Positions 20,118 through 50,200 of a stretch of DNA of 64,000 bases are shown piece after piece; position 1 is the first letter of the stretch; each line of letters starts with the position of its first letter. Location of the stretch: NCBI GenBank assembly GCA_035084275.1, contig CM068743.1:16988001-17052000 (forward strand), written 5' to 3'. Origin of the DNA: Hydrolagus colliei. Taxonomy: Eukaryota. The notes beneath the pieces were generated by a model. The model made no database searches. It was not told the DNA's origin and was given only the letters and a program-made list of their open reading frames with translations. A program made the position numbers and the translations under genes.

Positions 20118-20294
20118 TTAGTGAAAAGGTTCGACATAGTTTGCTGGAAGCATTCCAGTGCTTCCAGTTCTCTGGACCGTGCCGTACATCCAACCCTCAT
20201 CAATTGCCTGAACATTGACAATAAAATCACCATCCTTGAAGGAAACCTCATCATCATCCGCTGCAGTGTAGTCATACATTGCTCTGAATGTCCT
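20118..20294 (-). CDS. NEBL: NEBL last coding exon, SH3 domain: [58 protein letters not shown]
   Basis: Classic nebulin-family SH3 motifs (AMYDY, EVSF, GWM, PANYV); tacag| acceptor; TAA at 20118-20120. Confidence 0.98.
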
Positions 20295-23200: not shown

Positions 23201-26200
23201 ATGAGGGTTCATACTCATTTGTAAACCAAGAAAATTGCTAATTCAATTTTAACACATTGTGTGCTGAAATAAACATCTCATCTACATTTAGAATTGAAGT
23301 GCCACAAATTTGAAAGCAAATGCAAGCAAGGTGCATCTTACCTTGGCTTATTTACACTTATTTCTAACTGACTAAGCCAGGTATATTATGGGCCACACAA
23401 AATAAATTTCTGAACTTTGATATTAGTATGAAAGAGGTTGGAAAGCAGTGGAATAATGTGAATAACATTTGAATAACTAATATTGTAAAACCAAAACAAA
23501 ACGAATTGCACCCACGTTCTATTGATCAAGTGTGGTAGAACCATTCCATTTTATGCTAGAGAAGATTTTTGCAGTTTACATGCAACAGTGTGCAGTAAAT
23601 GTTAGTACCAATTCAAGTTTGATAGTTTTGTACCTCCGTCTGCAGATAGGTCCAATGTACTTTCACTGTAGCCGGAGAAGCTGTGATTAAGCTCAGTTAT
23701 CTCTGACTTTTCATCACCAACACTTACACTGCCCACACTTGTGGACTCAGATTGTTTACTGTAGCGTTTTACCTTTTCTACAGCAAAGAAAGGAAAGCAT
23801 ACAAAGCAGAGTTGATGTACAGCCAAATAAGAGAACCGAAAATGTATTAAGTTGCAATCTCAAAAGTTCACTGAACAACCAGAAATGCACAGGTGAGTAT
23901 ACAGTATACATACAAGCTGGTGTACAAAGCCATTCTCCGTATGTTTAAAATAATTTTCATAAATGTGTGTTTTATTTACAGATCAGAGAACATAATGAGC
24001 ATTCTTTTCTTTCAGCTTAATTGGCACAACCGATAAATGTACGTTTTACACTTTTGAGTCACACTGGGCAAACCAGCACTTTTTTTTTAGTAAATTCATT
24101 TGTTATTGAAATGAGCAATGTTAGTTCAGGGGAATTAAACACTTTTTCATTTCAAACACTTCATAACAGGATCAAACACTTCGAGGTCAGGTCACATAAA
24201 ATTGCCGTCTGCACAGCATAGTTTCCTTTCCTATATTCAAATAATTGTGTTGGAGTTCCAGCTTTTAAGAACATTTGTCAGATTCTTAAATGTCTTTATT
24301 TTTATAGTTTGGTGTTCTGTAAGTTATTTTAAGAACTATGGGAGGACAAATTTGCAAGGCTATGTGGAGAGAGTGGGGGGAGAGCCTAAAGGCAAATGGC
24401 CTCCTTCTATACTGTATAATTCTATCATTCTAATTACAGGTTTCCAAGTTAAATTCAAGTTCCTGCACACTTTGAAATGTTACATTGCTCGAATACAACT
24501 AGACCCTGGGGAATTTTACCCCAAATGTGCCTGAAATTCAACGCCGTACAAAGCAAAAATCATCACCTAACTGATGGACTCCAGTTCTCATACCCACCAT
24601 TCCAGCAGCCTCCCTGAACAACATTAACAATTCAGCACCAAATTAGAAAACTTTGTGACATTGGTTTCAAAGTCATCAGGAACCAAATTTGGACTTCCCA
24701 CGAAATGTTTGAATAAAGGAAGCTTAAAATCAGCAAATGGAGACTACTAACACCCCATCATATTGGACTGACAAAGAGTACAACCTTTTTACACTAACCA
24801 AATTAAGTGATATTAGACAGGTTGGAATAACACATTGTTATGCTTCCTGCTCCAAAATCACTCTCAAATAAGGTTGGGGAACTCATACATGTCGAGTTCT
24901 GTTAACTACCAATAAACTATATTTGACTCTGTTTTTATATAAAAGTGTAATTAAAGTGCTGGGAGTACGACAGCCTGTTTCACAGTTGAAACCTTAAACC
25001 AAACCTTTCAATGTTTTTGAAAATGTATTTGCCATTAAAATAGTTATTATATTGGTGCTTCAATTCAATTCCAAATCAAATAAAACATGACCTGATATAG
25101 AAATCACATTGCAATGGAGCTCCATATTGTAAAAAGAGCATTCATTTGGGCTGCGTTTCAAAAATTGGATGTTACTCTGATGTTTCCAATCTAACAATTA
25201 CCCTCAATGGTTTTTCCCCACATTTATATTTTCAATTATTTGCTCACAGTTGATGCTCAATAATAACCAGTATACATTTAAGGTTGTATTGCAAGCTTTT
25301 GAGATAATTGCTAGTACATTGAAAAGGATAAAATAAAATGAGAAAAATACAAAGTCAGCTATTTCTTTATTCTTACCAAAAGTGAAATGATGATTATATT
25401 TGTGAAAAAGCAATCATTCAATTTACCAATACAAATAGAACTATAATATTCTATTTGTGTTTTGGGAACGCACCATTTCCAAATCTATAAACATAAATAT
25501 TGATAGTCAATGCATCCCTACATCCCTTTCTGTGGAATATGCACGCAATACAATTGAGAGGTTGGACACCTGGGTTTATACAGAAGCATCAACAACTAGA
25601 AAACCATGCAAACAAAAGTGCAATAGATGGAGAAAGTAAAATAAATGCAAAAATGAAAACAAGAGAATAGGGATAGAGAGAAAATGAGTGATGACAAAGT
25701 GAGTGATTTTTCCTGAAAAACAATTGAAATGAGGTTTGTATTTTATTTTTGCGTGTCATATTTAATATTACATCAACAAAGCTGTGTTGATATTTGAGTA
25801 GCTTTATTAATATAACATTAATTTCTGTTCATTGTTACACGGCAAGATTAGAATATGTACAGAAACAGTTTGCTAATGGGGAGTTCCCAAAAATTTAACA
25901 GCAATTTAATCAAAGACCTTTTTGGGGGGTCAGCTGGGTCTCTGTCATGTGGAAACCCAACACCATGATTGAGAGTAACAAAACCAAACTAGGAATTCCA
26001 ACCTAAATATGGAAATTCCAGAAATATTTATTGGAATGGAATGCACACTCTCTCCCTGGAGGGTTGCTTCCTCATTATTTAATTCCAAAAGTATTAGCAC
26101 AGGTTAGCAAGAGCCCAGACTTGTTTGCGGACCCCCGAGTGTGTGTTGGGGTACTGCTGGAGTCTAACCAGCTAAAACCGCATAGCTTGGCATTGACAGT

Positions 26201-29200
26201 ATTGTCTGGCAAGCTTGTCCACCTAGCTCTTTCAAGGCTTAGATGAACTGAGCGAGAAGAGTCCCTGCCCCCAGTGACTGATCTGCACTTCTGAATCCTA
26301 TCACTGAGCTAGCCTGGCTACACTGGCAGGCCAGTTCTGTGGATTATTAATAACCCTAATAATAATCCTTGCATTTGAAATATAGAAGTGCCTTTCTTGT
26401 CGAGAGGTCATCTCAAAGCACTTCACAGGATTTACTGTAAAGGTTAATGATTATATTTTGTAACCGAGCACAGCGGCCAAGCTGTGCACATTAATCTCTT
26501 GCAAGGGAGGGAATCACCAATTTTTCTTCGGATAGTTGGTCAAGAGCCTAGGAGAAACTCCCTTCTCTTTTTGAGTGCATGAGAATGTCCACCTGAAGAA
26601 GCAGACTCTACCTCAGTATATCGTCTCATCTGAAGGATGGTAGCTCCGCCAATGGAGTGTCAAGCGAGATTTATGTGTGTTCAAAGTTGTTGCATGGGGT
26701 TTGAATCTACAGCCTTCCGATTCAGCTACTAAACTGATAGTGTAAGGGTTAACGTCCCTTTGATATTCTACCACACTAAACAAAATTAGGAATAATTACT
26801 AAAGTGGAAATAGCATAATATTGACAATAAATTTTACCTGTATTGTGCAGTTCTTGTAAACCTATTTGAAGTTATTTATTTTGTTTTAGGTACTTAGATT
26901 TTTATAGTAGTTCTATTGAATCCTATATAATGAAGCAAATTCGAATTAGGTTATGTACAGTTCTCAGGGTCAGTCATTTACTCCTTCAAACTTTAATGAT
27001 TTGGAGTTATTGGTTCTGTGTAACTCAAAGTCTCCAGAAAATTCTACTCATTGATGGCTTTTACTGACTAGATTTGACTCTGCGGTCATTGATTTTATAA
27101 AAAAAAGCTAATTATTCGTATGATTCTGCTGTTATTTTTATTGGAATAAGATTTGTTTTCAATATTCACAAATTTATAAAATCCCTTCATAAATAAAAAT
27201 TTATTGGTCACTCCATCCACGACTGTTTGTGGGATAATGCTGTGCACAATTGGCTGCTGTGTTTAGCTCACAGTCAGTCTACTTTACAACGTATTCTATG
27301 AAGCGCTTTAAGACGCCTCAATGGCATGATAAGGCACTGTATCAAATGCAAGGATTATTAGATGTGTTTCTCATTGCATTCCCATTACACAAAATAATTA
27401 AGACTAAAAATAAAACTTTAAAGCAAACATGAGCTATACCAGAAAGCAAATGTAGACTCCTGGACTGGATGTTGTCTTCAAGAGGATCAAAGTCAAAGAT
27501 GGAACCAGGATCTGTGCGCCATACTTTAAATTCTTTTAGCAGAAAAGGAAAGTCTATGAGAGATCCTAATAGGTTAGACAGTAGAGCCTAAATTATAAGC
27601 ACTTTAAGCCAATGTTAATACAACAATTTAAACCAAAATGATTGAAGTTTACAAAGCATAAGCAGTTGATGTATTTGCATATAATGGTATCTGTTGCCAT
27701 TTGAATCAGCTTGAATCAGCTTCTAAAATTATATGTAAAGTTACCAAGTCTAGGACCTCATAAGATGAACATTCATTATCCTGTCACATATTTAAATCTA
27801 AAGCAATCAATTTGAACTGCTTTTATTTTGTCATTGTATTTTACAGGGCATCTAACCCATGCTTGAATTGCCCTTTGTCAGAATTGCCTCTTAATTGCCT
27901 TAGATAGGCGTGTGGCTCGGGAATGGTACAGCGTAGACTTTGAAAGTGCATCACAATTAGCACTGGTGTTCAGCAGCACTCCACAATAGAAACATGAAAA
28001 CATCATTTTAATGTCAGCATCTTTTCTATTTACTTTTGCTTTCACAATGTTTGGTTGCAACCACTGGAACAAACCATAAAAATCCACAGTACATCCCACC
28101 CACCGGATTTGTGCTTGATCTTTTAAAGAGCAATTATTTCAGTCCCATTCCCCTTACCCCTGTGGTTCACTCTGTTCTAGATATCCTTCTCGTTCCCTTT
28201 TGAAAGTAATATTAATTCTGCCTCAGCCATTGCTCCTGGCAGCAGTATTCATTCCATGTCCTAAATACTCTATATGAAAAACATTCTCACAAATTTCTGA
28301 TTTGCTTGCTATTGTAAATTGATGTCCCATCCTCAAGATTCACTGACTAGGGAAAATCAATTTGCTCCATTGACTCTATCAAGCACTCTGAGATGCTGCC
28401 CGGCAAAGAGGGTGCTTTATAAGTGCAAATCGTTGTTGCATCAAAATCTTTTATATATATCTGTGACCTTGACATCCTTCCTAAAGGTAGGGAATCAAAA
28501 CTGGACACAATATTCTAACTGTGGTGTAACTAAAGAGATAAAGAGGTTTAGCATTAGCTCTTTGGTTATCCTATTTGTAAAACCTAGGATTCCATTTGCT
28601 TTCTTAACAACTTTTCCCACCTGCCTTTCCACCGTTAAGTATGTTAACCTTTAGGTCCCTCATCACTTCCACATCCTTTTAAAGTTTTATCACCTAAAAT
28701 ATACTTGCTCTCCTTATTCTTCCTCCCAAAATGAAAGAGTCACACACCAGCAGCTATCAGTCATTGCCACCTGTACATCTTTAGGTGGGGCAAGGAGGGA
28801 GCTGTATGTGATATAATTATTGCTGAAATAATCACGTCAACACAGACAAACAAATACAAGTATAAGACTGAAATACCCATCCCCTTGAAGAATGTTTTTT
28901 CCTCAGCCTTTCATGCCTTTTCTGAATTGAGTGGGCAGAATTTAAAATTTTAATTGAGCAACAGGGATTTTTTTTAAATCACTAAATGCAATTATTTCAC
29001 TTTAGCTTCAATTTGTTACTTTTCAAATTATTTTTAGGCTATTATTTGGGGGGAAAGCACAAAATGTGCTCTCTCCACAAGATTTTCCCAATCCCATGGT
29101 GATAATTATCACAACACATTTCACACTTTCCCTCCCTTGTAAATGTATTCTGTGGTTATAAACAATTTGCGCATTTCTAAAGCACTGCATAGGGTATCAT

Positions 29201-32200
29201 CTTAAGAGCTTCACAAAGACATTAAGAAAGGGAGAAGGTCAGGGGTGGGGGGGGGAGATGACCGTAGTAGTCAACGAGGTAGGTTGTGGATGGGATTTAA
29301 AGATCTAACAGGATGGGGGGTATAAGGAAGCAATTCCAGAGTTTAATAGCTGAAGGCTTGGCCACCAATGATGGCATGGAGTGAGGTAATTAGAGTTTTC
29401 AAATCAGAAAACTTACCGCCGACAACACCAGGTCTGCCTTTCTCCATCTCCACCACGTGGGGATGTACTCCTTTGTAGGCAGCATCACTCACATACTGAG
29501 TGTTCTTCCGTGCCTGGTCTATTGCAGGGTCATCGAGTCCTGGATTGAAGCCCCTGCCCTTTGTCTTTTCGAAGTCCTCGTGATATTTGATCTGTTAACA
29601 GAATAAAATCCAAATTGTTGATAATGTGGACAATTATTATTTCCTCCCATAGTGAATATATTGCAGTTTACCGTAGCGAAAATATTCAAGCATATCTACA
29701 CATAATGCTATATGTAATGCTAATTTGTAATGCTAATTTTCATACCCCAAATGCAGGCATGCAGTCAGATATGTTAATACACAACCACACACAGCTCACC
29801 AGGCATACACACTTCATACGTGCAGGCTTTCAGACTGTGTGCAATGGATCAGGTGTGAATGTTTTGGTTCTGCAAGCAGTGCTTGTGACACAAACAAAGA
29901 AACAGACCAGGTTTTCATTCATAGTTTATTTTTTTTAAATTATTTTGACGACCTCATCTATAGAGAATGGTTTAAAACTCTTTTACACAAAAACATGCCT
30001 TGGGTGTTAATTTGGAAACAACTTTGCCACACATGGGTTTCCATTAGTTTACCCAAGTTTATTACTAGCTGTCAAGTGCAGTCGGTACTAAAATCAGTGC
30101 ATAAGTGCCAGCTCTTCTATGTGCTGCTCTGGAGAGCTCCTTCCACTGTACCATGGAGATATTGTTTTGTGTCTCACGGACACGTTTCATTTCTGGTGTG
30201 TCTAAAAGGAGAACTGGTCTGCCTTTCATCTCCTTCAGGTCATTCCTGTACTGAATCTGCAGGGAGAAAAAACAAACAAAGTTTTGGAACTTTAAAGTTA
30301 GATGCAATACACTAGGATAGTTTCAAAAAGTAAATTCATCATCCTGCTTGAGAGTATACAAACCACACTGAGTTACACATATGTGTGCCTCATACAAATT
30401 TCCCTGTGGCTGGAATGAAATGAGCAACCTGCTTGGTGAAGGGTGCTATATTCACCGGGTGCTTGTTGTAATTCTATCATCTGTACTTAACGGGATGCTG
30501 CAACACTATCGTCTGTACTCTGCAGGATGTTGCAACGCACCCGAAAACTCTGCAACCCACTCTTCCTCTGTCCCTACACCTTACCCCATCCTTTCCCATC
30601 TTCAGATCGCGCCTGAAGAAGTACCTCTTCAACCATACCTGCAGTCACTTCCCCCTCCCCCCGACTCGGCATCAGGCTCCACCACTATCAAGTTCTGTGG
30701 GATGCTACCCTGCTTGACGGGTGCTATATAAATGCAAGTTGTTATTGTTTTTGTGTTGAGTAAAAAGACAGAATGAAATTGACAGAAACAAAAGGATATG
30801 AGGACTTGCCAAGCTAACATTCGCTTGATTCGTCTTGGCTCTTTCCATTTCAATAGTGACACTGACGGGAGTGCCCTTGCCAACCAACTCTTTATACTTG
30901 ATCTACTGGGACAAATATGTCGTGTTAATATTTCCTCAATCAATTGGTTTAGATTTTTTAAAATATTATTTCGCACACAAAATATAGTCAATTCACTTTA
31001 CAGAATATTCTATGGAGAGCTTTGAGAAATCTTGAAAATGTAGTAAGGCTCTATATTAAAATGCAAGGATTATTAATATTATTATTATACCGGTGGAAAC
31101 GTTTAATGATTTTTAAAGTAATCCTTTCAAATTTCTATCACTATATTCACATATAACTTTTTTTTAGAAATTGATTTATATATTTCATTGTTTACACACC
31201 GAGCTGATGTTCTTCTGATTTTCTTTGACTCGTTTTAAGTCAAAAGGATCTGGAATTGCTGTTCCTTGCCCAACTTCTTCTTTGTATTTCACCTTGTCAA
31301 ACACAGAAATGTTCTACTTCAATAAATGTTAAAACAAAATAGTCATGCAAAATCCAAATAAAATGATTCTACCATTCCACAATCAACCCAGTTTCATCCA
31401 TTCCACTTCCACAACACTGTAATCCAGCTCTATCTACTCACCTTACAAAACATGGTACTGTACTCTAATTCTGTTCTATTCAACAACAACAAAACAATAA
31501 AATTACATTTGTAGAGCACCTTTCATGTCAGGACGACGTCCCAAGGGGCTGAACAGTCAGGGGTCAGGACCCGAGTAAGGGGGTTGGGGAGGGGGGTGGA
31601 GGGTTGGGATGAGGGAGGGCAGAGAGGTAGGAGGGTGGCTGAAGGCACGATCAAAAAGGAGGATCTGAAGAGCAGCCTTGAAGGAGTCACCCACTTCCCC
31701 CAATCAAGCTTTGCCACTGTTACACACTTCAAATCGCTAGCCATGTGAAGGTTGCTACGTAATATTCAAGTTGTTGTTGTTATAGTGGTACAAACACACA
31801 TCATGTTGATCCTGTCTCACATACAGTACTTGGTTTAATTTTTTTTAATATTACAGGGATATGGCTTTACTCTTTGGAAAAGACTGATGCATATCTACTT
31901 TTTCAAATAATAACTACATTCATTAAGAAATATTGCCCTTTTAGAAATTGATTTACATATTTAATTGTTTACACACCGAACTGATATTCTTCTGATTTTC
32001 TTTGACTCGTTTTAAGTCAAAAGGATCTGGAATTGCTGTTCCTTGCCCAACTTCTTCTTTGTATTTCACCTTTTCAAACACAGAAATGTTCTATTTTAAT
32101 AGCTTTAAAATAAAACGGTTAGACTCATTAGGCGAGACCTAGCAATCGCACGTTCTGTTTGGAATAAAGGCTCATCGGACTGTTTGATCTGTGGCTGTAT

Positions 32201-35200
32201 GTGTGTGTTGTGGAGGGTGGTGGGTAAGCATGGTTTCCTTATAGCTGAATTGGCTCCAAAGTAGCATGCCTGGCAATGGAGTGTTACGAGACCCATCAAC
32301 TCTCTGTGGCGGTCACCGTAGTCCAAATCCTGAGCCAGGTGGATCCGCAGGGATCCAGGGGCACTGCTGATAACACCAACAACCAGTTTGGCTCATCAGC
32401 AGGACATGGAAGAGCAGACGAGTCACTGCGGGAAGGATTCTTTTCACTCAGCTCCTGTTAACCGCGCTAGCCAAAGCCCTAACAAGTAGGCTGATCCAAG
32501 CTGGACAAGCAGCAGGAAAGCTTGTTAGAGCATGCTTTCATTTGGAAGCTTTACAGCTTTAGCTGTTTAGACTCTAGTGGAAAAAATATATGTATTTTCA
32601 AGTAATACTTTCAAATTTCTATAATTACATTCATTAATACTGCGTTTTAGAAATTGATTAATTATTTACACACCGAACTGATGTTCTTCTGATTTTCCTT
32701 GACTCGTTTTAAGTCAAAAGGATCTGGAATTGCTGTTCCTTGCCCAACTTCTTCTTTGTATTTCACCTTGTCAAACACAAAAATATTCTACTTTAATAGA
32801 TTTTTTTTTAAAAAAGTCACTCTCCATAGGCGAGACCGAGTAATCACAAGTTCTGTTCGGAAAAAAGGGCCCATCGGTCTGTTTGATCTCTCTCATATAT
32901 CATTCAAATGTGTGTGTGGAGTGGGGGGGAGGTGGGGGGGGAAATTCAATGGAGTTTTCTCGGAGGTGAACTGGCACCAAAGTACTGCAGTATGCTTGTA
33001 ATGGAATGTTGGAATCGAGTCAACCCTCTGTTGGGGTCCTGTAGTCCAGTATCTGAGCCAGGGGCACTGCTGATACTACCACAGCCATTCTGGTTTATCA
33101 GCAGGACCTGGAAGGGATGGATGGCCAGTCACTGCAGGAAGGATTCTTACCACTCAGCTCCTGTTAATCCAGCAAATCAAAGCCCCAACAAGTTGGGTGG
33201 TCCGAGCTGGACAAACAGCAGGAAAGCTTGTTAGAGAGTGCTTTCAATTGGAAGCTATACAGTTTTGGCAGTTTAGACTCTAGTGGAAAAAATATAAGTA
33301 TTTTCAAGTAATACTTTCAAATTTCTATAATTACATTAAGAAATACTGCCATTTTAGAAATTGATTTTTGTATTTCACCTTGTCAAACACAGAAATGTTT
33401 TAGTTTTAATAGATTTTTTAAAAGTTCTGTTCGGATGAAAAATATCTTTCAGTCCAAGTGGTCTCATCCTTCCTAGAATATCCATCCTATCATCCTCGCA
33501 TTGGAGCATCAAGCTGTTTCTTAAATGAGTGCAGCACCCTAGCCTCAAGAAACCCCCATGGTTACCCAATCCAGTTATTATTTATCCTCTGAAAACATCA
33601 TATCTTCTGGTGGCCATCCACAAACTACTCTTTGCTCCCCTGAGTCTATGCGATGTTATTCTGCTGTCCTTGTATATTTGAAACTATGTTTGGGTTCATT
33701 TGCATGACTCAAGACCCTCCTCTTCGACAGTGCCATCGGTCACAACCCCTCCCCTCCCGACATGCAAGGCGCTCTATAAATGTAATTTTGTTGTTTTGTT
33801 GTTGTTCCCTCCACCCTCCCCGATCCCGACACCTGCTCTGGTCTGAAACACTGACTGCCCAGCGCCTTGGGACATTCTCCAATGTGAAAGATGCTATACA
33901 ATTGTAATTTTGTTGTTGTTGTTCTCAATTCTGGTTAAAAGGCCTGTATACCAATGAGGTTGGTACCACTTCTGAGGTTGAAGGGACGTGATGTGTCTAA
34001 ATCACTGTTCCTGGCTCATTCCTCTAATTTTGAGAATCAACCTAATTGTTTTCAGTATCATCGTCATTGATCTAATGTAAGATTGGTGAAGCAATTACTT
34101 TGTAAGATCAGCTTCCACAGGTTTTATTTACATGAAGAGGTATTTTTGTATATGAGAAACTAACACTGAACTCATGGGAGAAAATAGGTACCATAGCTTT
34201 AGATGACTTATGATCTCTACACCCCCTTTTTCACATTAAAAAACTATCAACTCCGTTCTTTTATTTGGGGGTGGCTGGGGCGCAGAGTTACAAATAAACC
34301 TACTTTTCCACAATCAGTAACATCCTTATACTCCCCACTCCCATTCCATTAGACAGTAAGCCAGCATCACCCACTCCCCTATGCCTTGCGCGGTTGTGAA
34401 AATTGATCTTAAATGGTTATTTGATGGATAAACAATAACCGCAGGTAAGAACATGAATAACGCTAATATTAAAAACAGCCACTGTCACCATCTAGCTAAT
34501 ATTCAAATGTACAAAAAGATTCTCATCTATCCTCCTTCCTCCAACAAAACAATTAAAGCTGATGATTGGTATAAATAGTAAAACAGAAAATATCACCTGA
34601 TATTCAGGTTGTGAACGGTATAAGTGCCAGTGAAAGCAAATGGGGTGACAATAATATCAACCTGACACCAAATTACCAATTATTACTTTTCTTCCCCTAC
34701 TAATGGAAGCTGGCCTTATTCCTGTCATGGTAGATAATGTCAGCTCCCAGGGCACATATATGCATGAGTAGACCCTGGAACTGGGACAGAATTCCAGCTG
34801 TGGAGGACAGAATGTTTTTATAGTCCATAAAACAAAGTCTAACAGCACACTAGCAATAGTCGAGAAAAAATATTTGCATAGCTTCTACATGACTGTCTGG
34901 AATTATTAATTCTTTTTTTGTTTGTTTTTACATATAATGACGCGCTTAGGTTGAATGAAGGTCCTAACCTGTCTGGATGAGTTTATTCTTTCATGATTAA
35001 CTAATCAAATACAGGTTAGAATCAATGCCTGTGACCTTATAGGAATTGATATGGTGTCATAATAAAATGATAATTATTGAGTGGTTAGAGCATTCATCTC
35101 GCAAGTGAGAGGATCTGGGTTTCAATTGCCAGGCAGGTGAAACATTGCGCAAGTTTCCTTACTCCTCACACCTCTGTTTACCTCACAGTAAACAGGAACC

Positions 35201-38200
35201 CAGTTGTTAGTCAATTGGCAGATCACTTATCCAGGAGTAATAATTCCTTTAAAAAACTTTTTAAAAATAAGAATTATGATTTGGTCACTCAATCCACAAT
35301 GGTTTATGGGATGCTGCTGTGTGCAATTGGCTGCCACGTTTCCCACAAAACATACAATCAATTCACTTTACAGTTTATTCTGTGAAGCATTTCGAGACAT
35401 TTAGAAGACTTAATAAAGCGCTATATCAAATGCAAGTATTATTAGTAAAAAAAAACTCCCAACAATATTTCTCTACAATAACTTACATCACTGAACTTCA
35501 TGCAGTTCTCCTTAGCAAGGCGGATTTCAGGAGTTTCATTTACAGCTATTACTGTTTCAGGTCCAGTACATTTACAGTGTACTGGACCTGAAACAGAAAA
35601 ATGAAACTGGATTAATACAAGTGCGAAATAAATAGAAACAATAAAATAATTACAACAAAATGTTATGCAGTTGACGGTTATGCAATGTTAATTGGATTAG
35701 CTCACTGCCGAGACAGAAATGTATCATGAGCCAGCTTCTGCATGAACAACACCAAAATTGCATTTGTATATCACCTTTCACAACTGTCGGTGATACATCA
35801 AGGTTTCCAAACATGTAACTCCTCAATATTTACAGATAAGCACCCAAGCAAGCAGAAAATAATAGAATTGACTGGTCATAAAGTTCACCAGAAATGAATG
35901 AAACCAAAGTAAGAAGGTCTAGAGAAGACCTAATTATGGGCAACATCAAAGCTGAAAAGATTATAATGTTCAAAAGTTGGCTGAATTTTCTTTCATCTTA
36001 TTCCCAACCCTCCCACACCACCCAAGCCACCCCACTCCCTTTTTAACCTGTCTCACCAGACCAAAAGAGGTTGGTAAATGGCTAGAATTGTTTTTTAACA
36101 AATAAAGGAATTTGGCAGCAGAGATTCAATAAGACTCGGTGATCACCGAAGAGAGGATTGTGTGCAATCGGCAAAAAACAGCTCGACAATGTGATAATGT
36201 GCTGTATCAAATGCAAGGATTATTATAAGGAGAGCAATCAGAAGGCAGAACCAGAGGCTGTTGGCATTTCCAAAACAACTGTGCACAACTGTGCCTTGTT
36301 TCACCCACAGAATATACCCTCAATTCACCAATATACCTTACAATATATTCTGCGAAGAGCTTTGTGATGCCCCAACCACGTAATAAAAACTAATGTTGTA
36401 GAAGAGTGGACAGAGCTAAAGTATTTGCATATCATAAAAGAAGAGATCAGAAAACTCTTACTTTTAATAAAATAAATAATCTATACGTACCGTGCTGATA
36501 TTTTTTTGGTTTTTCTTAACTCTCTCCATTTCTGGAGTATCTGCTAGTGTGGTAACAGTACTAAGCATCTTTTCTGCTTCACCTTTGTATTTTTTCTGTG
36601 GGCAACAAAATATATTTTTACAAGATAAACCTTTATAGCTAAATGCCCTGAAATGTTTTGACTTTAATTCTCAGGTTGAACTCATTCTGATTATTACCTA
36701 CCTGACTGTAAATATCCTTTAAGTGTGCTGCATGCATCAACTCTGGTGTATCGGTAACAGTTCCATAATTATTTTGACCCAAGTCAGAGACCTGCTTGTA
36801 CATTGCCTAAGGCAGAGAAAAAATTAAAATTAATAAAGGATTTTAGCTCAGCATTCAAAAACCACAAAGGTTGGTTCAATCATTTGAATTGCGTACTTGC
36901 ATTTCTCAATAATATACAAATATTAAAAGCAACAAAACTACATCTGTGTTATGAATTGTTAGAGAATTGTTGCAAGTGCTGTTAACCCGTTCACCCACAC
37001 AAACCTATTTAGCTTTGAGGCTTTTGCTTAGAAATAGCATTGACATAATTATGCTCGTACTGGAGTTCCTCATTGGAGCTGGGCCTAAGGTGTCACCAAA
37101 TATATATGCAGGACCAAAAATATGGCTACTTCTGGTCATCAGGTCACCATTGTAGGACACTGCTGTGCGCAATTGGCTGCCGCATATCGCCCACAAAATA
37201 TACAGTCAATTCACTGCACAGTGTATTCTGTGAAGCTCTTTGAGATGTCTAGAAGATGTGATAAGGAGCTGTATCAAACTGCAAGGATTGTTATTATTAT
37301 TATTGAGGTCACTTCCTGGGCACTATAATAATAATAATAATCCTTGCATTTGATGTAGCGCTTTTCACATCTTATCAACTTCTCAAAGCGCTTCACAGAA
37401 TATACAGTAAAGTGAATTGACTGTATATTTGTGGGCAAAATATAGCAACCAATTACGCACAGCAGTGTCCCAACAAACAGTCATGGATTGAAATGACCAA
37501 TTTTTAAATTATTATTGTGGGGGGGGGGGGGTTCAAAGGATTATTATTAGGCATGTGGAGTAAGGAAACTTGCCCAAAGTTTCGTCCTGATCTGCTTGGA
37601 TTCGAACACAGGTCTCATGCTTGTAAGTCGAGTGCTCTAACCACTGAGCTACAGGAGCTCCACAACATGCAAGGAGTGCTGTGGTTCCTGTGCATCTCGC
37701 ACATACACAGTGCACATGAGGTAACATCAGAACTGCTTTCTGAACTTAACGCACAACAAGCAGAAAGTCACATCAGAAGCAACCTGATGAGCCACAAGTC
37801 AGCCATTTCTTGAGAGTGGGAAACTGTCTCTGGTCAGTTATAGGTGAGGCAGCACTCTATCCCCTTGCATCATGTTTCATTAGAATAAGATAATCTTAGG
37901 ATTAACTTTAAACACACAAAAATTTTAGCTAAATTTTTAATATTTATCATAAGAATTTACCATGAGACTTAACATTTTAAGCGCCAAAGAAAACCTGCAA
38001 CAAGGCTATTTGCATTATCACAACAGTGAGCAAGTCAAAGGATTAATATAAGTAAAACTACCATGAAGACACAAATATCCTTCAATGTGCACTGACCTGA
38101 CTAGCAATTTCTGATGCTTTCAAGGCACGTTTAATATCAAGAACATCTGCACTTAGTTCCATTCCTTTGCCCTTGATTTGCGTTTCAAGATCCTTTCTGT

Positions 38201-41200
38201 ACTCTCTCTGCAACAGTGAAATTAGTATCTGGAATTAATCATCTTTCACTATGAAACAAAAAGAGGCATTTGGAAAGACATTATACCAGACTTTGGAACT
38301 GGCCTGCTAAGTGACTGATTTCTCCAAAGGGAACTTGAATTTGGCAGAGGGAAGGAGTGCAGAGCATTGGTGGTATAAAAGCTGTAAACCAATCTTCTTC
38401 CCCCATCCCCACTCATCCTCTTTTCCGCTGGAATTGGATCAAAGGAGCGCCCTCTGCCTTGTCAAGTGCACAGAGCAACAGATGCATGAGGCCTAGTCTC
38501 ATAGCCAGATCAATGCTATTGTACTTGATGTCTGAGGTGCTAACCATTAGTGAGAGCAAGGCACAGAGGCCCTGACTGCAAACCCAGGTGTCTACATTCC
38601 TCCTGGTCTATTAGAGATAGCAGGTGGTAGCAATCCTTGTTTAGTGCCTTGGGACCTCCTCCCAATTGCTATACAAATATAATTTTGTATTGTATTTTGT
38701 ATTTAACAAATTCTGATTGATCAATTCTGTCTCCATGTGTTGAGTATCGGGTTAGCTTGGGCAGTCTGCCGTTATTGAGTTATATAACATCTTGAATTCA
38801 GGAATTACTCTGGGATGGCGTTCTCTCACCTCATTTAATATTTGGGATGCGTTTCTGACTCGAACCCTGTCAGGAGTGTCTTCCGCCAGAGTCAGCCCTT
38901 TTCCCTTAATATTTTCTGCCCATTCTTTCCTATATTCTTTCTGTGAATAGAATGTTGTCACTTTAAGGCTTAATTTGGAAAAGTATGCCATCAATAATAT
39001 AAACAAGAAAACATGGAATTTTATTATAAGGTAGAATATGATGAATATTTGGCATCAGAACAACAAAAAATACATCTGTTTTTTATTTCAATTTCTAATT
39101 CAGTTGTGATTTGTTTAGTTGGGATTTGTCCATTTGATCCAAGCCACTAGATGGAGCTTTGCTCAAGGTCAAAGGAGGCAAAAAACCAGCAGCACAGACC
39201 ACAATATCTATCAAATGAAATTCCCATCTGCTGATATGCATGTGTAGCAGGCACAAAAAAAATTAACATCATAAGCTGCCCTCACTTTTTATTTAGAAAA
39301 CCATGGTGGCAAAAATGAAAACAACAAGCCAACATTAATACCTGTCACAAAGAACGACTGCCCAAGACCTTCATCAGGACAATAAGGATCATTGAGGAAA
39401 GGAGGGTGGATTTGAGAGCATTGACCAAAGGCATGGTCAAAGAAACAGGTTGTTTTGATTAAAATATTGGTAAATCATGAGATTAACAACTGCTGTACAT
39501 TGATTTAATATATTTCTATCTATTACAGCAGAGACAAACAGGATTTATAAATGTTTGATTGCTTGACATCTTATACATTCATCTGAGCGGCAGATATGCT
39601 TCCTGAGCTGCATTAACTAAAGGTGTCACTGTTAATGAATAGCAAGGGTGAGAGTTACCTCATTAAGAAGACTGGTGACATGTTTGGCATGTAAGTAGCT
39701 CGGGGTCATATCAAGATCCACCAACATTCTCCCTTTGATTCCCTCATCATAATCTTTTCTGTATTCCTTCTGTTGATTGGCACAATATGAAAAGTGTCAG
39801 CATTTCCATGAGCAGTATACATATTTCATTCTCATGGTGAAAGATGTGACAATCGTTTACAAGCACAGTAAGTGAGGTATCTCTGGATGTTCTTTTGCAT
39901 TGGACATCTTCTTTCAAGAATAGTGAAAAAAAAACTTCAAATTCCAAACATTGTGTATTCAGCTCAGTATAGAACAAACCATATTTGTCAGTGGACAAAG
40001 AAAAACAGTCTATCATTACTATATGGATCAGTTTCATAAGAACATAACAAAAAAAGGATCAATGTCCATCTAGTTTTTACCTTCTATCTTCCTGGTGGTC
40101 GCATGCACATATGTCCCAGACTAGCTATGTACTCTATCCCATAATGTTATTTCCTTAAAGAAAACTATCTTATCTGTGGTTGAAAGAATCAACATTTCCT
40201 GCTTTGATCGGTTCTTAAGGGAAACTGTTCCACAAGTTCACTATTCACACGAATAGTATACCGGTGGAAGTTTCAAGAACCATTATAGTATATTTAATTT
40301 TAACTTTTTTCAGCAATGATTCTTGATCAAAGCTATTTTGTGAAACAACCAATTTTATACCTCTTTAGGTAATTAACTGTGAAGAGAAGGTTGAGGGCCG
40401 ACATGCTTAGTCTTTGAGATTCTGAAGGGAATAGATAATGTAGACCATGATAAGCTATTTTATCTTTTACCTCACCCCAGAGGCCATTGAAACTTTCATT
40501 CATGCTTCATTACATCCAGGCTTGACTATGCTAACTGCCTGTTTGTTGGCCTCCCCATCTCCTCCCTCCATAGGTTGCAGATCATCCAGAACTCTGCAGC
40601 CCATGTCCTCTCCTGCACCAGGTTCCATGCGCAATTGGTTGCCGTGTTTTACCCGCAAAATATGGTCAATTTACCTTAGAGTATATTCTGTGAAGCGCTT
40701 TGAGAGGTCTTGAAGATGTGATAAGGCACGATATCAAATGCAAGGATTATCATCTTGTGTTCTTAACGTGTACCTCTAAGTGTAAATATCCTATGGTGGG
40801 CTCTTGCCTCATTGTCAGCGTGGTGTAAAAATAATGACCTTCATAAGTGAAAGCAATGGATAATGTCCAAAGTTTTAAAAAATCTGCACTTCTTCACCTC
40901 ACTCTGCAGATGCTGTGCCTCTTTTGTTGCTAAATAACTTGGAGTCTCCATAACTTCCAGCATCGATTTTCCTTTAGATTTTTCATACTCTTCCTTGTAC
41001 TTGACCTGGCATATACAAAATGAATCAAGTTTCAAGACTCTAATCAAAGTCTTGTTTAAAAAAAATCTAAGCTTTTTGCCCATTTCGTACCATCGCAAAC
41101 TTACTATACCTGACTTTGGAGTATTTTGTTTTCCTTGTAGTGCAATTGTTCTGAAGTATCCAATGCCAGGTGATAATGTCCTTTACTTTTTTCAAACTGT

Positions 41201-44200
41201 TTCTTGTACTCATACTAAAAAGAAATATATCAGACATAAACATAGAATGTAGCCAGAAAGTAGAATTCAATAACATTAATCCGACTCTCAGAGTGCTTTT
41301 TTCTTTTCATCTCTTTTCTTGATACTGATTAGGATTTGCTTTCTCCTCTGCTTTCAAAACCCTTCTAAACAACTCACTTTTTCAGCTCCATCATCCGCCT
41401 TACCCACCACCCCCACCCCAACCCCATCTCCCTCATAGCTCCAACTCTGCTTCAAGACATTCTCCTACATTCTCTTTTAAGCACTTCAATATCGCCTGGT
41501 GTGGAGCTTGCTATATAAATACAAGTTGTTGTTGTAAATGAAAAGTGCTATTTAAATGTATGTTGCTGCTATAGATGTCAGATGTCTGAAATTCTACCCA
41601 ATTTGTAGCCTGTAAGATCATTTTATCTTAAAACTTCTGATCAAGCAATATTGTGGAAAAATTCTTCACCTCAGTCTTAGTCAGGAAGACTGATTTCTAG
41701 GTTTTTATGAAGTCAAGTTTCCAATTTAAGACTGAACTGAAGAATTTTCCGTAAATTTTAAGAACTTTCTCAAGCAATATGGTGAGCAGTATAACTCAAC
41801 ATCAAACATGTGAGAGTATTTGTTAGCGTTTTCCTGATAAACGCAAACTCTCATTGATTGTCAGATCCACCAGTTGGAGTTGTGAAGCTTTAGCAGCAGC
41901 TACTGCTTAGTACTCATACCAATTAAGGTCAATGCTTGAAATCCTCCTTAAGGTAATTTGTCTGATATATACGGAGACCATCATGGTCACCTAAGACAGT
42001 TTCAGAGCAGTACTGGCAATGGCCTAGGACTGGTGGTTCATCCACTTATACAAATAAAATGGAAAAGGGGCAAAATACTTTGAAAGCTGAACAATCAATA
42101 TTACAAAAGGAGTAAAAGGCAAAATAGTGCAGTTGCTGGAAATTTAGAATAAAAACAGAAATCGCTGAGAATACTCAGCAGGTCAGGCAGTATCTATGGA
42201 GGGAGGAAAATTATTTGACTCGAACTCATCGACCTGAAATGTTAACTTACTTTCATCTCTCCAGACCTGCTGAGTGTTTCCAGTGAACTTCTGTTTCTAT
42301 TTCAAGAAAAATCTATATTTCTCTTGTTGAACCAACACTACATTTGAGGAAAAACTCTGCTACACTATTTCAGAGCTGGCAAATCCATCTATATGTTTCA
42401 TTAAAAGGGAAAATACATGCATTTGTATAGTACGTATTACCTTGAAATATTTTTAAATAAAAGTATAATTAACACCAAGTGCAATGAGGCAACTCCAGCA
42501 ATCATCGACATCACCAAAGTCCAGCTAACAAGCAGCTAAATGAACAATTCATTGGAAGGATTGTTGACCAGAAACATGGAAATCTATATCACAGAAAGCA
42601 TCCATTTGTCTCATCATGTCCAGGGCACTGATGCAACAAATTAGGCAAATGCGAGGCTGTGCAATGTATTCTTTGAAGATCAAGCTTATATTTTACCTGA
42701 AAACATAAGACATTCTCGAATATTAATAGAAATTTGAGTTCCAATTCATTTTAACATTTCTATGAAATGTTAACTTAGCACACTGTGCAAAATATCCATT
42801 GAGGTTGAAAAAACAATGTCCTGGTTTTGTCGCTTTTTTTTGTAAAATGTTTAGTTTGTTCAATTTATGCACAGTCATGGAGTAGCTGACTTTTGCATTT
42901 CTTTCAAGGTGTCTAATGTTTGAATGATCTGTATTTTTAAGCCAATTTTTAAAAAATCCAACTTTCTAACTCTTCCCTATATCCTTTCTTTTGCTACTTC
43001 TTAAGTGCCTATCCAGTCCCCTTTTGAATGATTCTATTGATCCAGCCTCATTACTTGTTGTAATCAATTTGACCCCTATGCAAACTTCAGAATGAAGAAC
43101 TTCCTTCTAACCTCTCCCTCAGGTGAGAAGGTAACACTGGCAGAAAACTCTCATTGGATTGATAACACTCTCCTTGAACATTCCACGGTACAATGTAAGG
43201 CCATGACATGAAACAACTCTCAACTCCCAAGCTTCTGCACACAACTGATAAGACTCTGCTTCAAACACACACTAAACAACTAGTTTGTTTCAATCTAGAT
43301 ATAAGTTGTCTTCCAGTTGATTGCTGACGGCTTTAAAAGCCTATCACTGAAATGAAGCATGCAATTTACTAATCACACCTTTCCACACTTCAGTTGCCAG
43401 AATCATCACGTTCTTTCCATTTGCAAGTTAAAAATAACTCATCAGCTTTCAGAAAGATCTTCCTCCAATGTGCATGTAAATTAGTAGTGGATGGATTATT
43501 GTGTTATGATAATAATAAACTTTGGCGGAGATTGGTGTTCATCAAAATGAGCAATGTCAATTTTCAAGAATTGTGTTCTTATCCTTCAGTTTAATTTGTT
43601 TTGTACATTTTGCAGTCAGTCTGCTGCAGCTTTTTGTGGCTTCAAAAAAATGTAGTAGATAAATTGTGAAAAACTCACAGCACTTTGCAGTTTGCTAGCT
43701 GCCAACACGTGCTCCAGATGCAACAAATTAGGCAGATGCGAGGCTGTGCGATTTATTCTTTGAAGATCAAGCTTATATTTTACCTGAAAACATAAGATGT
43801 TCTTGAATATTAATAGAAATTTGGGTTCCAATTCATTTTAACATTTCTGTGAAAAATACATGCAGAAACACAGTACCATATTTAAGAATATCGAAACCAG
43901 ACAGAATTCTGCCAAGGTATGGAAATGTCAGCTTTTCAGGAATGGAATGCCCACTCTTCCCCTGGAGGGAAGCATTCTACTTAATTCCACAGAGTATTAG
44001 GAGCAGAATGGCAAGAGCTAAGTCTTGGGTACCCCAGATTGTGTGTTGGGGGTACTACTAGCATCTAACCAACCAGAACCAACTGTTTATTGTTGTTGAT
44101 TTTGTTGTTTGATTTCCCCCCCACCCCCTTGCCCCCTGGCCTTCCCCCCCTCTCTTCTTCCCTCACTCCCTTTGCCCCCTTTCTCTCCCCCCTTTCCCCC

Positions 44201-47200
44201 TTCCCTCCCTCTTCCCCCTTATGCCCTTCTCCCTGATTTTAACCCCCCCACCACCTTTGCCTCCCTCTCCCCCCTTATCCTCTTTTCCCCCTTTCTCCTC
44301 TGGTCCCACTTCAGCGACTGTTTGTGGGACACTGCTGTGCGCAATTTGGCTGCCACGTTTCACCAATAAATATAGTTTTTCTGCTTTCCTTCCTCCTACT
44401 CCATCCCCTCCCATTACCCTCTTTTCCCCCTTTTTCCCCGAACTCCACTTCCACAACTTTGTGTGGGACACTGTTGTGCACAATTTGGCTGCCGCAATTC
44501 TCCCACAAATATACAGTAAATTTTCCTACTTTCCTTCCCCCAACCACAACCCCTTCCCCTCTTGCTCTGGTCCCTACCTCTTTTCCCCCCTTTCTTCCCT
44601 CTTTTCTTCTCCCTCCCCCCCTGCTCTGGTCCCAACCTTGGGACGTTGTTGTATTCTGTGAAGCGCTTTGAGACATCAATAAGACATTGAAAGCACTATA
44701 TAAATGTAAGGATTATTATAATATTATTACTTATATAGAACCAAATACAGTAAAAGCCTGTTTATCCGTGACCCGATCAACCGTAACTTCCATATAACCG
44801 GCACCTCAAAAAAAGGTCCTCATTCGAATAACAGGATCTTATCCAGCACAATTACGCTGGCACATTTCTTTTCCCTTGTATCAGTATTTTGGAGTGCTGC
44901 TACTAGTGACTGAAGGTGGCGCTGCCATTTTATCCCCTCTCATTAGTATTTTGGTTTGCCACTAGTAGAGCCTTAAAGTCACGCCGCCATTTTTTTTCCT
45001 TGCATCGCCCTTTGTAGAAGATAGACTATACACCTCTACCCCAGCATCATGGCTTCAAACCAGGCATCTAACCAGCAAAACTGATTTTTATGTGAATTTT
45101 TAGGTGAATAACAAAGGTCTGATATTATCTGTCATTATTTAGTCTTTAGTGATAATGTTATGTGTTAAAATAAGTTAATTTTTTTGTGTTGGGTTTTCGG
45201 TAGCTAGCCGCCTGAATATCCGGCATGTCATTTAACCGGCATTGGCCAGGTCCCGAGGGTGTTGGATAAACGGGCTTTTACTGTAGCTTGCCATTGAGAC
45301 CATTTTCGGACAAGATTTTCCGCTTTTTGTCGAGCTTGGACCAACCAGCCCATTAGAGCCTGCACGGTTAACAGCAGCCAAATGAGAAGAATTACAGCCT
45401 TTAGAGACCAGAGTCTCATTCCTTGTCCTGCTGACAAGAGGGCAGGACTTGTCCGTCATTAGTACTGACCTGAAATATTGCACGCTCATCTACCTTTACA
45501 TTACAGTATATTCTTTGAAGCACTTTGAGGCATCTAGAATATGTTAAAAAGCGCTATATCAAATGCCAGGATTATTACTATTACCTCAGTTTCCATCCAT
45601 CTGTGAGCAAATTGCGCAATTTCAGACAAAAACTAGAATGACACATTTTAGACCCTATTAAGGAGTTCTCTCAAGAAATATAAAGTGTGAATGTTATGCC
45701 AAATTCCTGAGCTACAGAAGGGAAGAGGGCAAAATTGGTAGCTGTAAAGGGTGCTCACATTGCTGGCAAGAGCATTTGCTGTTTGTAATTGTTGGAAGGA
45801 GGCACTTTCCTGAGGATTGTAGTGATGCCTCTTTCCTTCTTTGATGTGTTTGTCTTTGTAGTTAAACTGGAACAGAACAAAAATTCAAATGTTAGATATC
45901 ACCCTCGAATTACACAGTCAACATACCTTACAGTAAATACTGTGAAGCTGCAAAGCTTTTGAGACAGAATATATTCTCATCTGGAATTCTTATATCCAAA
46001 ATGTACTAACTTACACTTCATTACATTCTTATACATCTCTCAATTTGCTGCTCACTTAATCTGTTGATGTCCATTTTTTATTTTCCATTCTCTTCTCAAC
46101 AGCTTGGTGTTATCTGCAAAGATGGATATGCTCCTATTGATTCCCGTATCCAGGTCAGTTATATATAGAATCAACACTGTGTCCCAGTACAAAACCCCAG
46201 GGGGTACCACTTGTCATTTCCCACCAATGACAGGAGAATGTCCATTTTATCCCATTCAGCTCATTAAGTGGTAACCATCTGATGACTTGTTCTCCAGAGA
46301 AAATAGAACTTGTGGTTATATAACTAATTGAAAGTAACATGACTGAATGATGGAATTTTTTTTAATAACCCAATAAACAGAAAGCAACATGAACCGCTGC
46401 AAATTCAGATCTGCTGAAATATATTGGATGTTTGATTGAAAATAGTGTTTACATTATTTGAGACTGCCTTGAGGTTTCTTGATGGCAATATAAAATAGTT
46501 TCTGGAACAAATTAACTAGGAAAACATTGTTCTAAGCACCCCAATTTTATTTAACTCTCACCAGAACCTTCTTGCCTCTGCTCGCTCTAAGTCATCCTGG
46601 CTGGTGGTCTACCTTACAAATCTCCAGATAAAATTGGTCATTCTAATGGACATGAAAATTGACTGGCAGTTTCACCAACCAAATGAACAGTCACTACACT
46701 TTACATACTTTGTGACGTGAAAGACATTATATTAAATGCAAAGTTTATTCTCATCTAGTTTTCTCCTCAACGTACAATTCAAACAACCTTGTCACATCTA
46801 TACATTGGACTTTAATTCAATGGGAAGTTCAGCTCTATCATAAGAATAATCCTTGCATTTGATATAGCACTTTATCATGTCACCAAGAATTTTCGATGCG
46901 CTTCACAGGTTACATGTAAAGTGGCGTGATTATCCATACTGGTGACCTCACCAGCTAATTTGCGCACAGCATTATCCCACTCTGATTCCCGTCTCATTAC
47001 ACAAGGACACTGAATAATGGAATAACCCTTGCTGCTGCTCTTCTATGAATCAGTTCCAATGCTTCAATACTATTTCTCTATTGCATTCTGCTACAATTCT
47101 CTATTGCAGTATCAGTAATTCAGTTACTGAGCAGGTGGGTCTGCAATACTCAAGGGTACTGGGTGTTGACAGATCCGACAGCAGGAGAGGGAGTGAGGTG

Positions 47201-50200
47201 AACTGTTTCTATGTATTGATGAGAGTTTCAAGAGTGGAGGTAAAAGTGGTTGAAAGCTCGGTCATGAACGATGCAGTGGAACGGGCAGGAGGGCATGAAG
47301 TAAACCAGAGCAAAGCAAGTGCCTAGGGAGTAGGAGCACACATGAATGCAGAGTTAGGGTGGAGCAAAGTCACAAAGACATTTAAAAGTAGGAATGAGCC
47401 ACGTGTCTGGAAGTCAATTCATTTGATGATGGGCAATCAGTGAAACTGAAGATTTGGAATAAAATACATGGTCTTGAGTAGTCTAGTTCAGGGGAGGATG
47501 TGGGTGCGGAGTTCTGGGTGTGAAAGGTAGAGCTGAGCAGCTGGCGGGCAGGAATTTGGAAACGTAGAGAATGGAGATGACAAAGGCAGAGATGAGGGTT
47601 TAGGCTGCGTGGAGGATGAGGTAGTGTCGGAGGTAGGAGTATGGATATCAGGCTCAGTATGGTGTATATATATTTTTCCTTTGAACAACTCTAAAGTCAA
47701 CAGAAGGCTTACTTGGCTCGTTAGTTTGGAAACCTCCTTAGCATGTTCAATGTCTGGTCTACCTATTATGGATGTTTTCTTAGCTGCTGCTGCTTTAGCA
47801 TCATTTTTATATTCTATCTGTAAAAAAAACATACTGTTTAATTAGCAGAAAATGTTTATGTTAAATATCAGCAAATATTACATTCAGTTTTAATCAACAA
47901 CCTGTTGCCTAACAGGTTTAAGATGATTAGACTGCATTTTCATTGGTTCATTTTCTTAAGAGTTTCAACCACATGATGGACTTCTTGCAACAAAATCTTA
48001 TTTTTAAAGCATTAATGAAGAATAATTTCCACAAAATAGCAAACACTGGAATTTAAGCATTTATCTTAATATACCTCCTCACTTAATTTTCAAATACAAG
48101 TAAAATAGGGACAAACAAGAACATGCAGCTACATTGCTTTTCATTGGCACTGACTTCTGATTTTTATGAGAAGTGTCAATCATTGCGAAGCATTTATTCT
48201 TTTGACACTTGTTCGCAGTTAGCGAGAGCAGTGTGATAAAATTTGTCTCATGGGAGTCAGCAGAGTCTTTTGTGTCAATTATTCTGAGATTTCATGCAAT
48301 TAAATAATATAGCTACAATACTTTATTACCCAGCAATATGATAATAATCCTTATATTTGGTAAAGCGACTTATCATGTCATCAAGACATCTCAAAACACT
48401 TCACAGGAAATACTGTAGGATTGTATTTTAAAATGAATAAAAATGAATCATAATTATGAATAACCCATCATAATAGCATTTCAGTTTATACTTAAAACTT
48501 TAGTTGCTTATTAATTGCATTAAGCAAAATTATAATAATATTGTACTTGCATTTGATATAGTGCTTTTCACATCTTCTAGACACTTCACAGTATATACCA
48601 TAAAGTGAATTGACTGTATATTTGTGAGTGAAGCACGGCAGCCAATTGTGCACAGTAGCGTCTCACAAACAGTCGTGGATTGAAATCACCAATTTACTGT
48701 TCTTTTTTCTTGATGGATTATTATCAGGAATATGGAGTAAAGAAACTTGCCCAAAGTTTCACCCCACCTGGAATTGAACCCAGGTCTCTTGCTTGCAAGG
48801 CGAGGGCTTTGTCTGCATTTTAGCTGTCAACGTGTCTAAATATCTATTAGTGTAAGGAATTAAAATATTTGTAAGCAGTGTTAATAAATGCCAACAAAAT
48901 GAAATACAGGTAAATCACCTGTAAAATGTATTGTTGCACGTTCACCATTACCTTTGCTCTGCATTCAGAAATGGTACTGTGTGGCATGTTATACTGTCAG
49001 TGGCAGCTCTGAAGCATCACATAACACTACCCTATGACAGCAAGCTTCACATCTAGGGAACACTCAGCTCACAATGATGATAACACCAGGCAGCCCTGCT
49101 AATGACAACCAAGGTCAGAGACTGATACAGAGAGCAAGCGCTCTGCACTAGTACAGCACTAGCTATCGGGAACTTTTCACCAATGTTACTCCATCAAGTG
49201 GTATGAGTCCAGAGTACTTTCAAGGGAACAGGGATTATTAGCCCCCCCCACCCCGCCCACCGCAGAAAGCAATCTGCCAATTGACTAACAACTAATGTAC
49301 TAGGTAAACAGGGGCAAGTACGTTCTTCATACTCAGTTATAAAAAATAAAACAAAGACATGCAGTAGGCAGCAAAAATGAAATGGGGTGTTTAATAGAAG
49401 CAGTGTGACTGGACAAATGTCAATTTGAGAATAATGCCCAATTGCGGAGGTCAGTATTCAATACAAAGAAATCTGCTCATTTTTACTTCTGAGTAAAACT
49501 AAGGGTTCCTTACGTTGCTGACAAGCCTTGATGTTTGTGTTGCTTTTCTGATGTCCAGCCTGTCAGCAATCTCCGTATATCTGTGCACGTTCAGTGCTTC
49601 TTTCTTGTACAAAACCTATTAAATACAAAGCAAACAATATGCGTTTTACCATCATCATTCACGTGACAATCAAAAATTCTACCAGAGAAACAAAAGTAGT
49701 TTGAGACAGTGGCAGAGCTGAGCGATCTTGCAGAGATGGGGAAAGGCGGTGCGGTGTCATGGCATGGATGTGGGGTATGAAGGACAATTGAGGGTAGAAA
49801 AGAATGCTAAGCACACTACATCTCAGCTCGCTTCATTGATGTAGTGTGCATCCATGGAGAGCAATGCTGTCAGAGCCCAAAGTATGAAGGCGCTGCTGAA
49901 AACAAGCACCAGTCCTGTTGACATTCAACTGCAGGAAGTTAGCCCTCATCCAAGACTTGAAGTTTGACTTGATGAGAACTCATCAAGTCCCGGAATTGAG
50001 GGTGCAGACAGAGAGATAATTGTTGGGTGTCATCTGCATACATGTATAAGTTGACCCCCAAGTCTGCAGACAATGTCAGCAAGGGGGAGCATATAGATAT
50101 TGAAAAGGAGAGTATATAAAGCATTGAATTTGATACTTTAAGTTTTATTTGTTAGTACATTTTGTAGATACATATATTGAAATAATATTTATCTTAAGTG

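Follow-up and report, generated by a model that had tools for sequence, protein, structure and literature searches.

Polymerase-theta, or synthesis-dependent, repair is reported to leave inserts made up of direct and inverse repeats that arise over several rounds of synthesis (PMC7165422 and PMC2943611), and template switching during replication is described as producing perfect hairpins in a single step (bioRxiv 10.1101/2023.04.19.537475; PMC8604942). At the level of RNA, exonic stems of 5-7 bp promoted skipping in reporters, as followed with compensatory tests (PMC10576025), and hairpins lying over splice sites are listed among known regulators (PMC9198270). Here we consider a nebulette exon that touches on each of these subjects. 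The account that we favor, with moderate confidence, is that a recent templated swap of 26 bases for 22 shifted the frame of the exon and at the same time built a 19-bp hairpin over its acceptor, and that the exon is now likely skipped most of the time, leaving a full-length protein.

The window, by which we mean the complete 64-kb stretch of DNA that was analyzed, carries on its minus strand a coding region extending over 20117..60773, the low end being approximate, for which 26 exons besides the broken one have been modeled. When the exon immediately upstream of the broken one (36491..36595, minus strand, 105 nt, phase 0-0) was used in a protein search the best 120 of 196 matches were all from amniotes and nearly all named nebulette, and the human and bird nebulettes align exon by exon with the window from ~60600 down to the SH3 exon at ~20130. 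In the model without the broken exon every one of the 26 exons is open, AG is found at 25 of 25 acceptors, 24 donors are GT and one is GC (30809-30808, minus strand, behind exon 30902-30810), and the product of 938 amino acids ends in an SH3 domain. Judged by its nebulin repeats, linker, terminal SH3 domain and colinearity with amniote nebulette, the gene is nebulette (LASP2/NEBL). Upstream and on the same strand lie LIM-type exons at C2:17187372, 17184495 and 17106673 (3 of 5 motif patterns found), an assignment made by motif. LASP2 is reported to have only its last exons in common with nebulette (bioRxiv 10.64898/2026.10.05.756842; PMC4465641) and, given this layout and the upstream LIM exons, LASP2 would bypass the broken exon.

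Several other features of the gene deserve mention. The next intact exon downstream of the broken one (32674..32766, minus strand, 93 nt, phase 0-0) is the first of three tandem exons (32766-32674, 32069-31977 and 31292-31200, minus strand) that encode identical 31 residues and have similar flanking introns, suggestive of recent expansion or homogenization. A fourth copy of this 93-nt exon unit is present at 33378-33360 (minus strand), where an internal deletion has taken most of the exon along with the donor and the acceptor remains, and at 42696-42630 (minus strand) there is a partial duplicate of exon 43783-43679 that retains the acceptor and first two thirds and is missing the 3' part and donor. 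Neither of these dead relics (42696 and 33379) has a donor or a comparable hairpin. An intact second 105-nt module at 36806-36702 (minus strand) corresponds in position to a module of the nebulin paralogue and is without a near equivalent in the amniote nebulettes examined.

The broken exon (35487..35587, minus strand) is 101 nt long, is preceded by cag and followed by the donor gtaagt (35481..35486, minus strand), and if translation carries over in frame from the exon before it terminates at codon 13. Its acceptor is contained in one arm of an inverted repeat. The arm at 35578..35596 (minus strand) comprises the 9 final intron bases, including the acceptor AG, and the first 10 exon bases, and 35552..35570 (minus strand), inside the exon, is its exact reverse complement (19/19) across a 7-nt loop. 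A 9-mer found in the 3' half of the exon (35537..35545, minus strand) recurs at 35569..35577 (minus strand), spanning the loop and the first bases of the inner arm; counting these two, the window holds 4 copies of it and 180 kb elsewhere also hold 4, for a background of 0.002-0.006 copies per 100 nt. All of these features, namely the 101-nt exon with its preserved splice sites and early stop, the perfect repeat with one arm over the acceptor and the repeated 9-mer, had been put forward in the original prediction and are confirmed here. Perfect hairpins with arms of at least 17 bp and a loop between 3 and 30 nt are rare, the 64-kb window having 2 of them and stretches of 180 kb and 200 kb of the same genome one each, and the 19-bp inverted repeat is not due to chance.

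The other such hairpin of the window is likewise a perfect 19-bp inverted repeat (12509-12562, loop of 16 nt), 23 kb from the broken exon; its portion at 12527-12562 belongs to a dispersed repeat and matches the remaining copies in reversed orientation, so that this copy carries a short inversion of the template-switch type and provides a control located in repeat DNA. From C2:17218401 onward, upstream of the LIM exons, two perfectly complementary arms of 36 bp are separated by a 4-nt loop, and a perfect 17-bp inverted repeat with a 7-nt loop is found at C14:12993946-12993986 in the nebulin gene region.

The 181-nt region around the acceptor is predicted to fold with -53.6 kcal/mol (z = -5.85), a value equaled by 0 of 200 shuffles, and the stem over the acceptor AG accounts for a predicted fold of -32 kcal/mol. 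In the lowest-energy fold an additional outer helix of 10 bp pairs the remaining pyrimidine tract, with a 2x10 internal loop between the two helices. The stem is predicted to be closed at 4, 10, 20 and 37 C, and a thermal switch was rejected. We have also rejected a miRNA precursor, for which a stem of ~35 bp and a loop of at least 10 nt are quoted (bioRxiv 10.1101/2023.04.19.537475), the present structure having a 19-bp stem and 7-nt loop and 0 of 17 Rfam matches reaching the gathering score.

Eight of 15 sequencing runs were compared with the window. X1, X4 (organism A), X6 (organism B), X7 and X13 (organism D) cover the lesion; X10, X11 and X12 are without coverage there. X1 and X4 carry different sample and study codes, although the assembly may have been made from X1. 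Each provides one unbroken contig across 35418-35900 with 0 differences from the window, at depths of 31 and 48, and no second allele appears in these contigs, which drop rare variants. Fold-back chimeras can produce palindromes, and the present one might on that basis be an artefact of assembly or library; with identical unbroken contigs from two samples of two studies this is exceedingly improbable, unless a single library lies behind both runs, and the palindrome of the original prediction is taken as no error of assembly.

The relatives tell a different story. X6 and X7, the latter at a depth of 3.8 and in agreement with the former, each differ from the window in the interval 35551-35574, where they have 9 substituted and 4 additional bases, and by hand reading both have the identical 105-nt exon of 35 codons, with no stop, no palindrome and the QY, DL and KGK residues of nebulin modules. 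In X13, a more distant species for which 32 of 40 differences are listed and the last 16 exon bases and donor lie outside the visible part, the exon is also 105 nt, open in the part that is visible and lacking the palindrome. The outer arm is unchanged in X6 and X7 and has one difference in X13. The inner arm is present in none of the three and hence no stem is kept in any of the covering relatives, an alignment that makes the open exon ancestral and the 101-nt exon derived. Outside the cluster of changes X7 differs from the window at only 2 of about 205 bases (~1% divergence), so the event is recent and the perfection of the stem is no sign of selection.

Comparison with the relatives makes it possible to dissect the swap. 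Exon bases 1-13 are ancestral, as is all of the sequence from 35552 onward, and between these two parts 26 bases have been replaced by 22 (35553..35574, minus strand, from hand reading of the substitution and insertion tables), for a net loss of 4. The first 4 new bases, in the loop, complete the copy of the 9-mer at 35537-35545, with homology of 3 old bases before and 2 bases after, the latter in common with the inner arm. The 18 that follow match the exon start and acceptor exactly in reverse complement, and rejoining is through 1 shared base, the nineteenth of the arm. The three switches are thus associated with microhomologies of 3, 2 and 1 bases, and the directly repeated piece amounts to 4 inserted bases, though within a 9-mer match.

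That the changes form a derived cluster relative to 3 of 3 relatives, with an insert complementary to at least 5 bp of flank, is what would be expected for templated insertion or template switching, and supports the proposal that the breaking of the exon and the building of the hairpin go back to one and the same templated event. A common origin in one mutation had been the suggestion of the original prediction, which also cited replication template switching as a known source of such palindromes; the templated copying stands, and the probable use of two templates had been missed. Synthesis would have left its template after exon base 13, the nascent end pairing by 3 bases with the 9-mer ~30 nt downstream, the likely first template, and copying a few bases there. 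It would then have turned back and paired by 2 bases with the start of the exon, with the outer arm as template for the inverted copy, and copied 17 more through the acceptor prior to a final rejoining by 1 base. The hairpin would be a geometric by-product of fold-back copying close to the start of an exon. A single template switch with two point changes was also considered, since 4 of 5 in-register bases of the relatives agree with the inner arm, and is rejected because two substitutions 2 nt apart that both complete the 9-mer would be unlikely at ~1% divergence. As for the machinery, the 1-base homology of the last junction is a weak fit to polymerase-theta repair, and as far as the sequence goes polymerase-theta end joining and replication template switching are not separated.

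To gauge how the hairpin might affect splicing an acceptor matrix was constructed from 92 distinct acceptors of nebulette and its nebulin paralogue, picked by motif, after removal by eye of 14 false start sites. Opening energies were calculated for a set of 96 in which one acceptor, entered one base off, was kept at that position and excluded from the matrix. The normal acceptor of the broken exon scores 11.0 bits, in the 89th percentile of the 92, and requires 19.3 kcal/mol to open, more than any of the 96 (median 5.2, maximum 14.3 kcal/mol). With the inner arm forced open, a constraint that represents the ancestral exon in place of direct folding, the value is 3.7 kcal/mol. The stem is therefore predicted to bury the acceptor, in keeping with the masking proposed in the original prediction. 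In the account that we favor it would form during transcription and hide the AG together with some of the pyrimidine tract, and 36491 would be spliced to 32766 instead. Skipping keeps the frame, gives the predicted 938-residue protein with SH3 domain and would reproduce the module order of amniote nebulette.

There are two further ways in which the exon might be read. The strong acceptor sequence and the gtaagt donor make some inclusion possible, and helicases are able to open stems so that a predicted fold may not persist. Were the normal acceptor still used, translation is predicted to stop after 556 amino acids, at codon 557, 1070 nt before the last junction. As a rule, a message is degraded when its stop precedes the final junction by more than about 50 nt, and nebulette would be reduced or lost, with LASP2 untouched by virtue of the upstream LIM exons. 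Such a loss could be tolerated, since normal cardiac function is reported for nebulette knockout mice, together with wider Z-disks, in a review (PMC10017460 section 2.7.1). We nevertheless regard this outcome as unlikely, on account of the stem of -32 kcal/mol across the AG and because the other 26 modeled exons are open with their splice sites kept, the latter a weak point as so recent an event would have left little time for decay. With the rest of the gene intact and the exon conserved, there are simpler readings than a full knockout.

In addition, an AG at 35608-35607, 19 nt upstream of the normal one, might bypass the blocked acceptor. This site was overlooked in the original prediction. 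It would define an open exon of 120 nt (35487..35606, minus strand) with a scrambled first half and all modules kept, in a product predicted at 978 amino acids; before the event the exon so defined was 124 nt and out of frame, and the loss of 4 bases has brought it into frame. It is the sole upstream AG within 150 nt to give a multiple of 3 (1 of 5), has an opening energy of 3.2 kcal/mol and scores 5.4 bits, in the 23rd percentile of true acceptors and the 93rd of 2588 decoys, and the strong donor would favor exon definition. However, the AG is predicted to be paired in the outer 10-bp helix (unpaired probability 0.03), the entire stem would lie inside the exon, favoring skipping, the nearest branch-like motif is just ~5 nt upstream and chance alone fits one frame in three, so that we consider use of this site improbable. 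The other AGs (35581, 35551, 35545, 35700, 35704, 35734 and 35737) are out of frame, and three AGs near the exon end would give exons of 9-24 nt with scores below those of all true acceptors.

How much is lost by skipping depends on what the exon was. The nebulin paralogue on C14 has an identical run of modules, in which the exon following the counterpart of 36595-36491 is 108 nt long. This exon of the same position is the best of 105 candidate nebulin-paralogue rows for the 3' half of the broken exon, with 13 of 21 residues identical, and the match argues that the latter is an old nebulin-module exon; with Pfam PF00880 the broken exon alone reaches 11.9 bits, below the cut-off of 20.1. Among the best 120 of 196 matches, a short module stands directly behind the upstream module in 120 of 120 amniote nebulettes (with a motif offset of 15 for 118 of them and of 12 for the other 2, as compared with 20 in the nebulin exon), from which we conclude that amniote nebulette is without this module. 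Protein searches did not find a non-amniote nebulette that has it, one giving no candidate, another 2 candidates of which none scored and a search of the representative library 3 unrelated repeat proteins, a weak negative in view of the short queries.

It might be that the exon was a rarely used cassette well before the mutation, in which case the frameshift was neutral and the hairpin of small effect. Its absence from those amniote proteins fits such a history, as does a report that teleost transcripts are without many of the predicted in-frame nebulette exons (bioRxiv 10.64898/2026.10.05.756842 sections 2.2, 3.2). Against this, the acceptor is strong, all 3 of the covering relatives keep an open frame and the exon of X13 is more conserved than its intron, with 6 of 89 visible exon bases differing from the X6/X7 state and, in the comparison with the window, 18 of 113 bases differing in the intron (one-sided Fisher p = 0.035, two-sided 0.051). 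Of the 6 exon differences 4 alter an amino acid. These numbers hint that the broken exon was formerly in use, and as the exon appears moderately conserved its loss may not be free. On balance there is only a small chance that the exon was already disused.

With the module dispensable in amniotes, LASP2 expected to bypass the lesion, the reported mouse knockout mild and two other dead exon copies present in the gene, the gene probably needed little rescue, and the notion that the hairpin had rescued it, as originally proposed, was overstated. The hairpin may nonetheless have helped the allele to be tolerated. The original prediction had offered as an alternative a structure-gated switch, an evolved poison exon that tunes nebulette through NMD or truncation. 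Inclusion would bring in a premature stop a long way ahead of the final junction, and hairpins at splice sites are known as regulators (PMC9198270). Yet the frameshift and stem are missing from 3 of 3 covering relatives, one of them ~1% divergent, and a stem predicted closed from 4 to 37 C offers no apparent thermal switch, making a regulated poison exon very unlikely. The hairpin looks like a tolerated accident, not an evolved control switch.

In a literature search, with subscription papers mostly outside its reach, we found no account of an exon that has been put out of frame, with its acceptor buried as well, by a hairpin from template switching. The type of mutation and each of the ingredients are known, and the nebulette allele is a clean natural example with a predicted effect on splicing. 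An insertion that arises by fold-back a few dozen bases or less from the start of an exon would have to copy the acceptor and lock it in a stem, so that a symmetric exon would be deleted at the level of RNA. We put forward, tentatively and with less confidence than for the skipping itself, that such self-silencing frameshifts are a real route to exon loss and that the nebulette allele has been caught soon after fixation, perhaps with a second rescue through the upstream AG. If so, one mutation removes a symmetric exon and the frameshift is never exposed to selection. Should skipping depend on the stem, the mutation supplies its own suppressor, exonic frameshifts that are tolerated or fixed are predicted to be enriched for fold-back insertions covering a splice site, and the interpretation of 'null' alleles in repeat-exon genes (NEB, NEBL, TTN) is affected. 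Should it not, this is a case of ordinary, well-documented exon death.

Of the systems described to date, synthesis-dependent MMEJ by polymerase theta, with its loop-out and snap-back intermediates, comes close in that a deletion is accompanied by a short insertion from flanks within 40 bp (PMC2943611 and PMC7165422), which in the nebulette allele comprises an inverse piece and a likely direct one, with homologies of 1-3 bases at the switches and probably more than one round of synthesis. Unlike the events described there, the nebulette allele is germline and apparently fixed in a wild vertebrate, its inverse tract of 18 new bases is longer than a single round, said in PMC7165422 rarely to exceed 10 bp, and its final junction has 1-base homology. 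Replication template-switch mutations, as reported in bioRxiv 10.1101/2023.04.19.537475 and PMC8604942, share with it the perfect hairpin formed in one step and a cluster of mutations relative to close relatives, whereas a single switch leaves the two loop substitutions unexplained; outcomes reported in those sources include new miRNAs and amino-acid changes, and here the outcome is a buried splice acceptor. As with stem-loops that cause skipping (PMC10576025; tau exon 10, SMN2 exon 7 and yeast APE2 in PMC9198270), a local stem is expected to lower inclusion. The stems presented there have few base pairs or are imperfect, and in many cases they are conserved or under regulation, while that of nebulette is perfect, new and unconserved, with an effect that is predicted.

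Poison exons of AS-NMD resemble the nebulette case insofar as inclusion gives a premature stop upstream of many junctions. Here, however, a coding exon has been hit by a recent lesion, with no sign of regulation and no conservation, the stop and frameshift recurring in 0 of 3 covering relatives and the inner arm, which a conserved regulatory RNA would have kept, being absent from X6, X7 and X13. There is a likeness also to exon gain, loss and skipping in the nebulin family, where phase 0-0 repeat exons are described as dropping out without a frameshift (bioRxiv 10.64898/2026.10.05.756842), the nebulette case differing in that it stands at the first step of the process, with the causal mutation still reconstructable.
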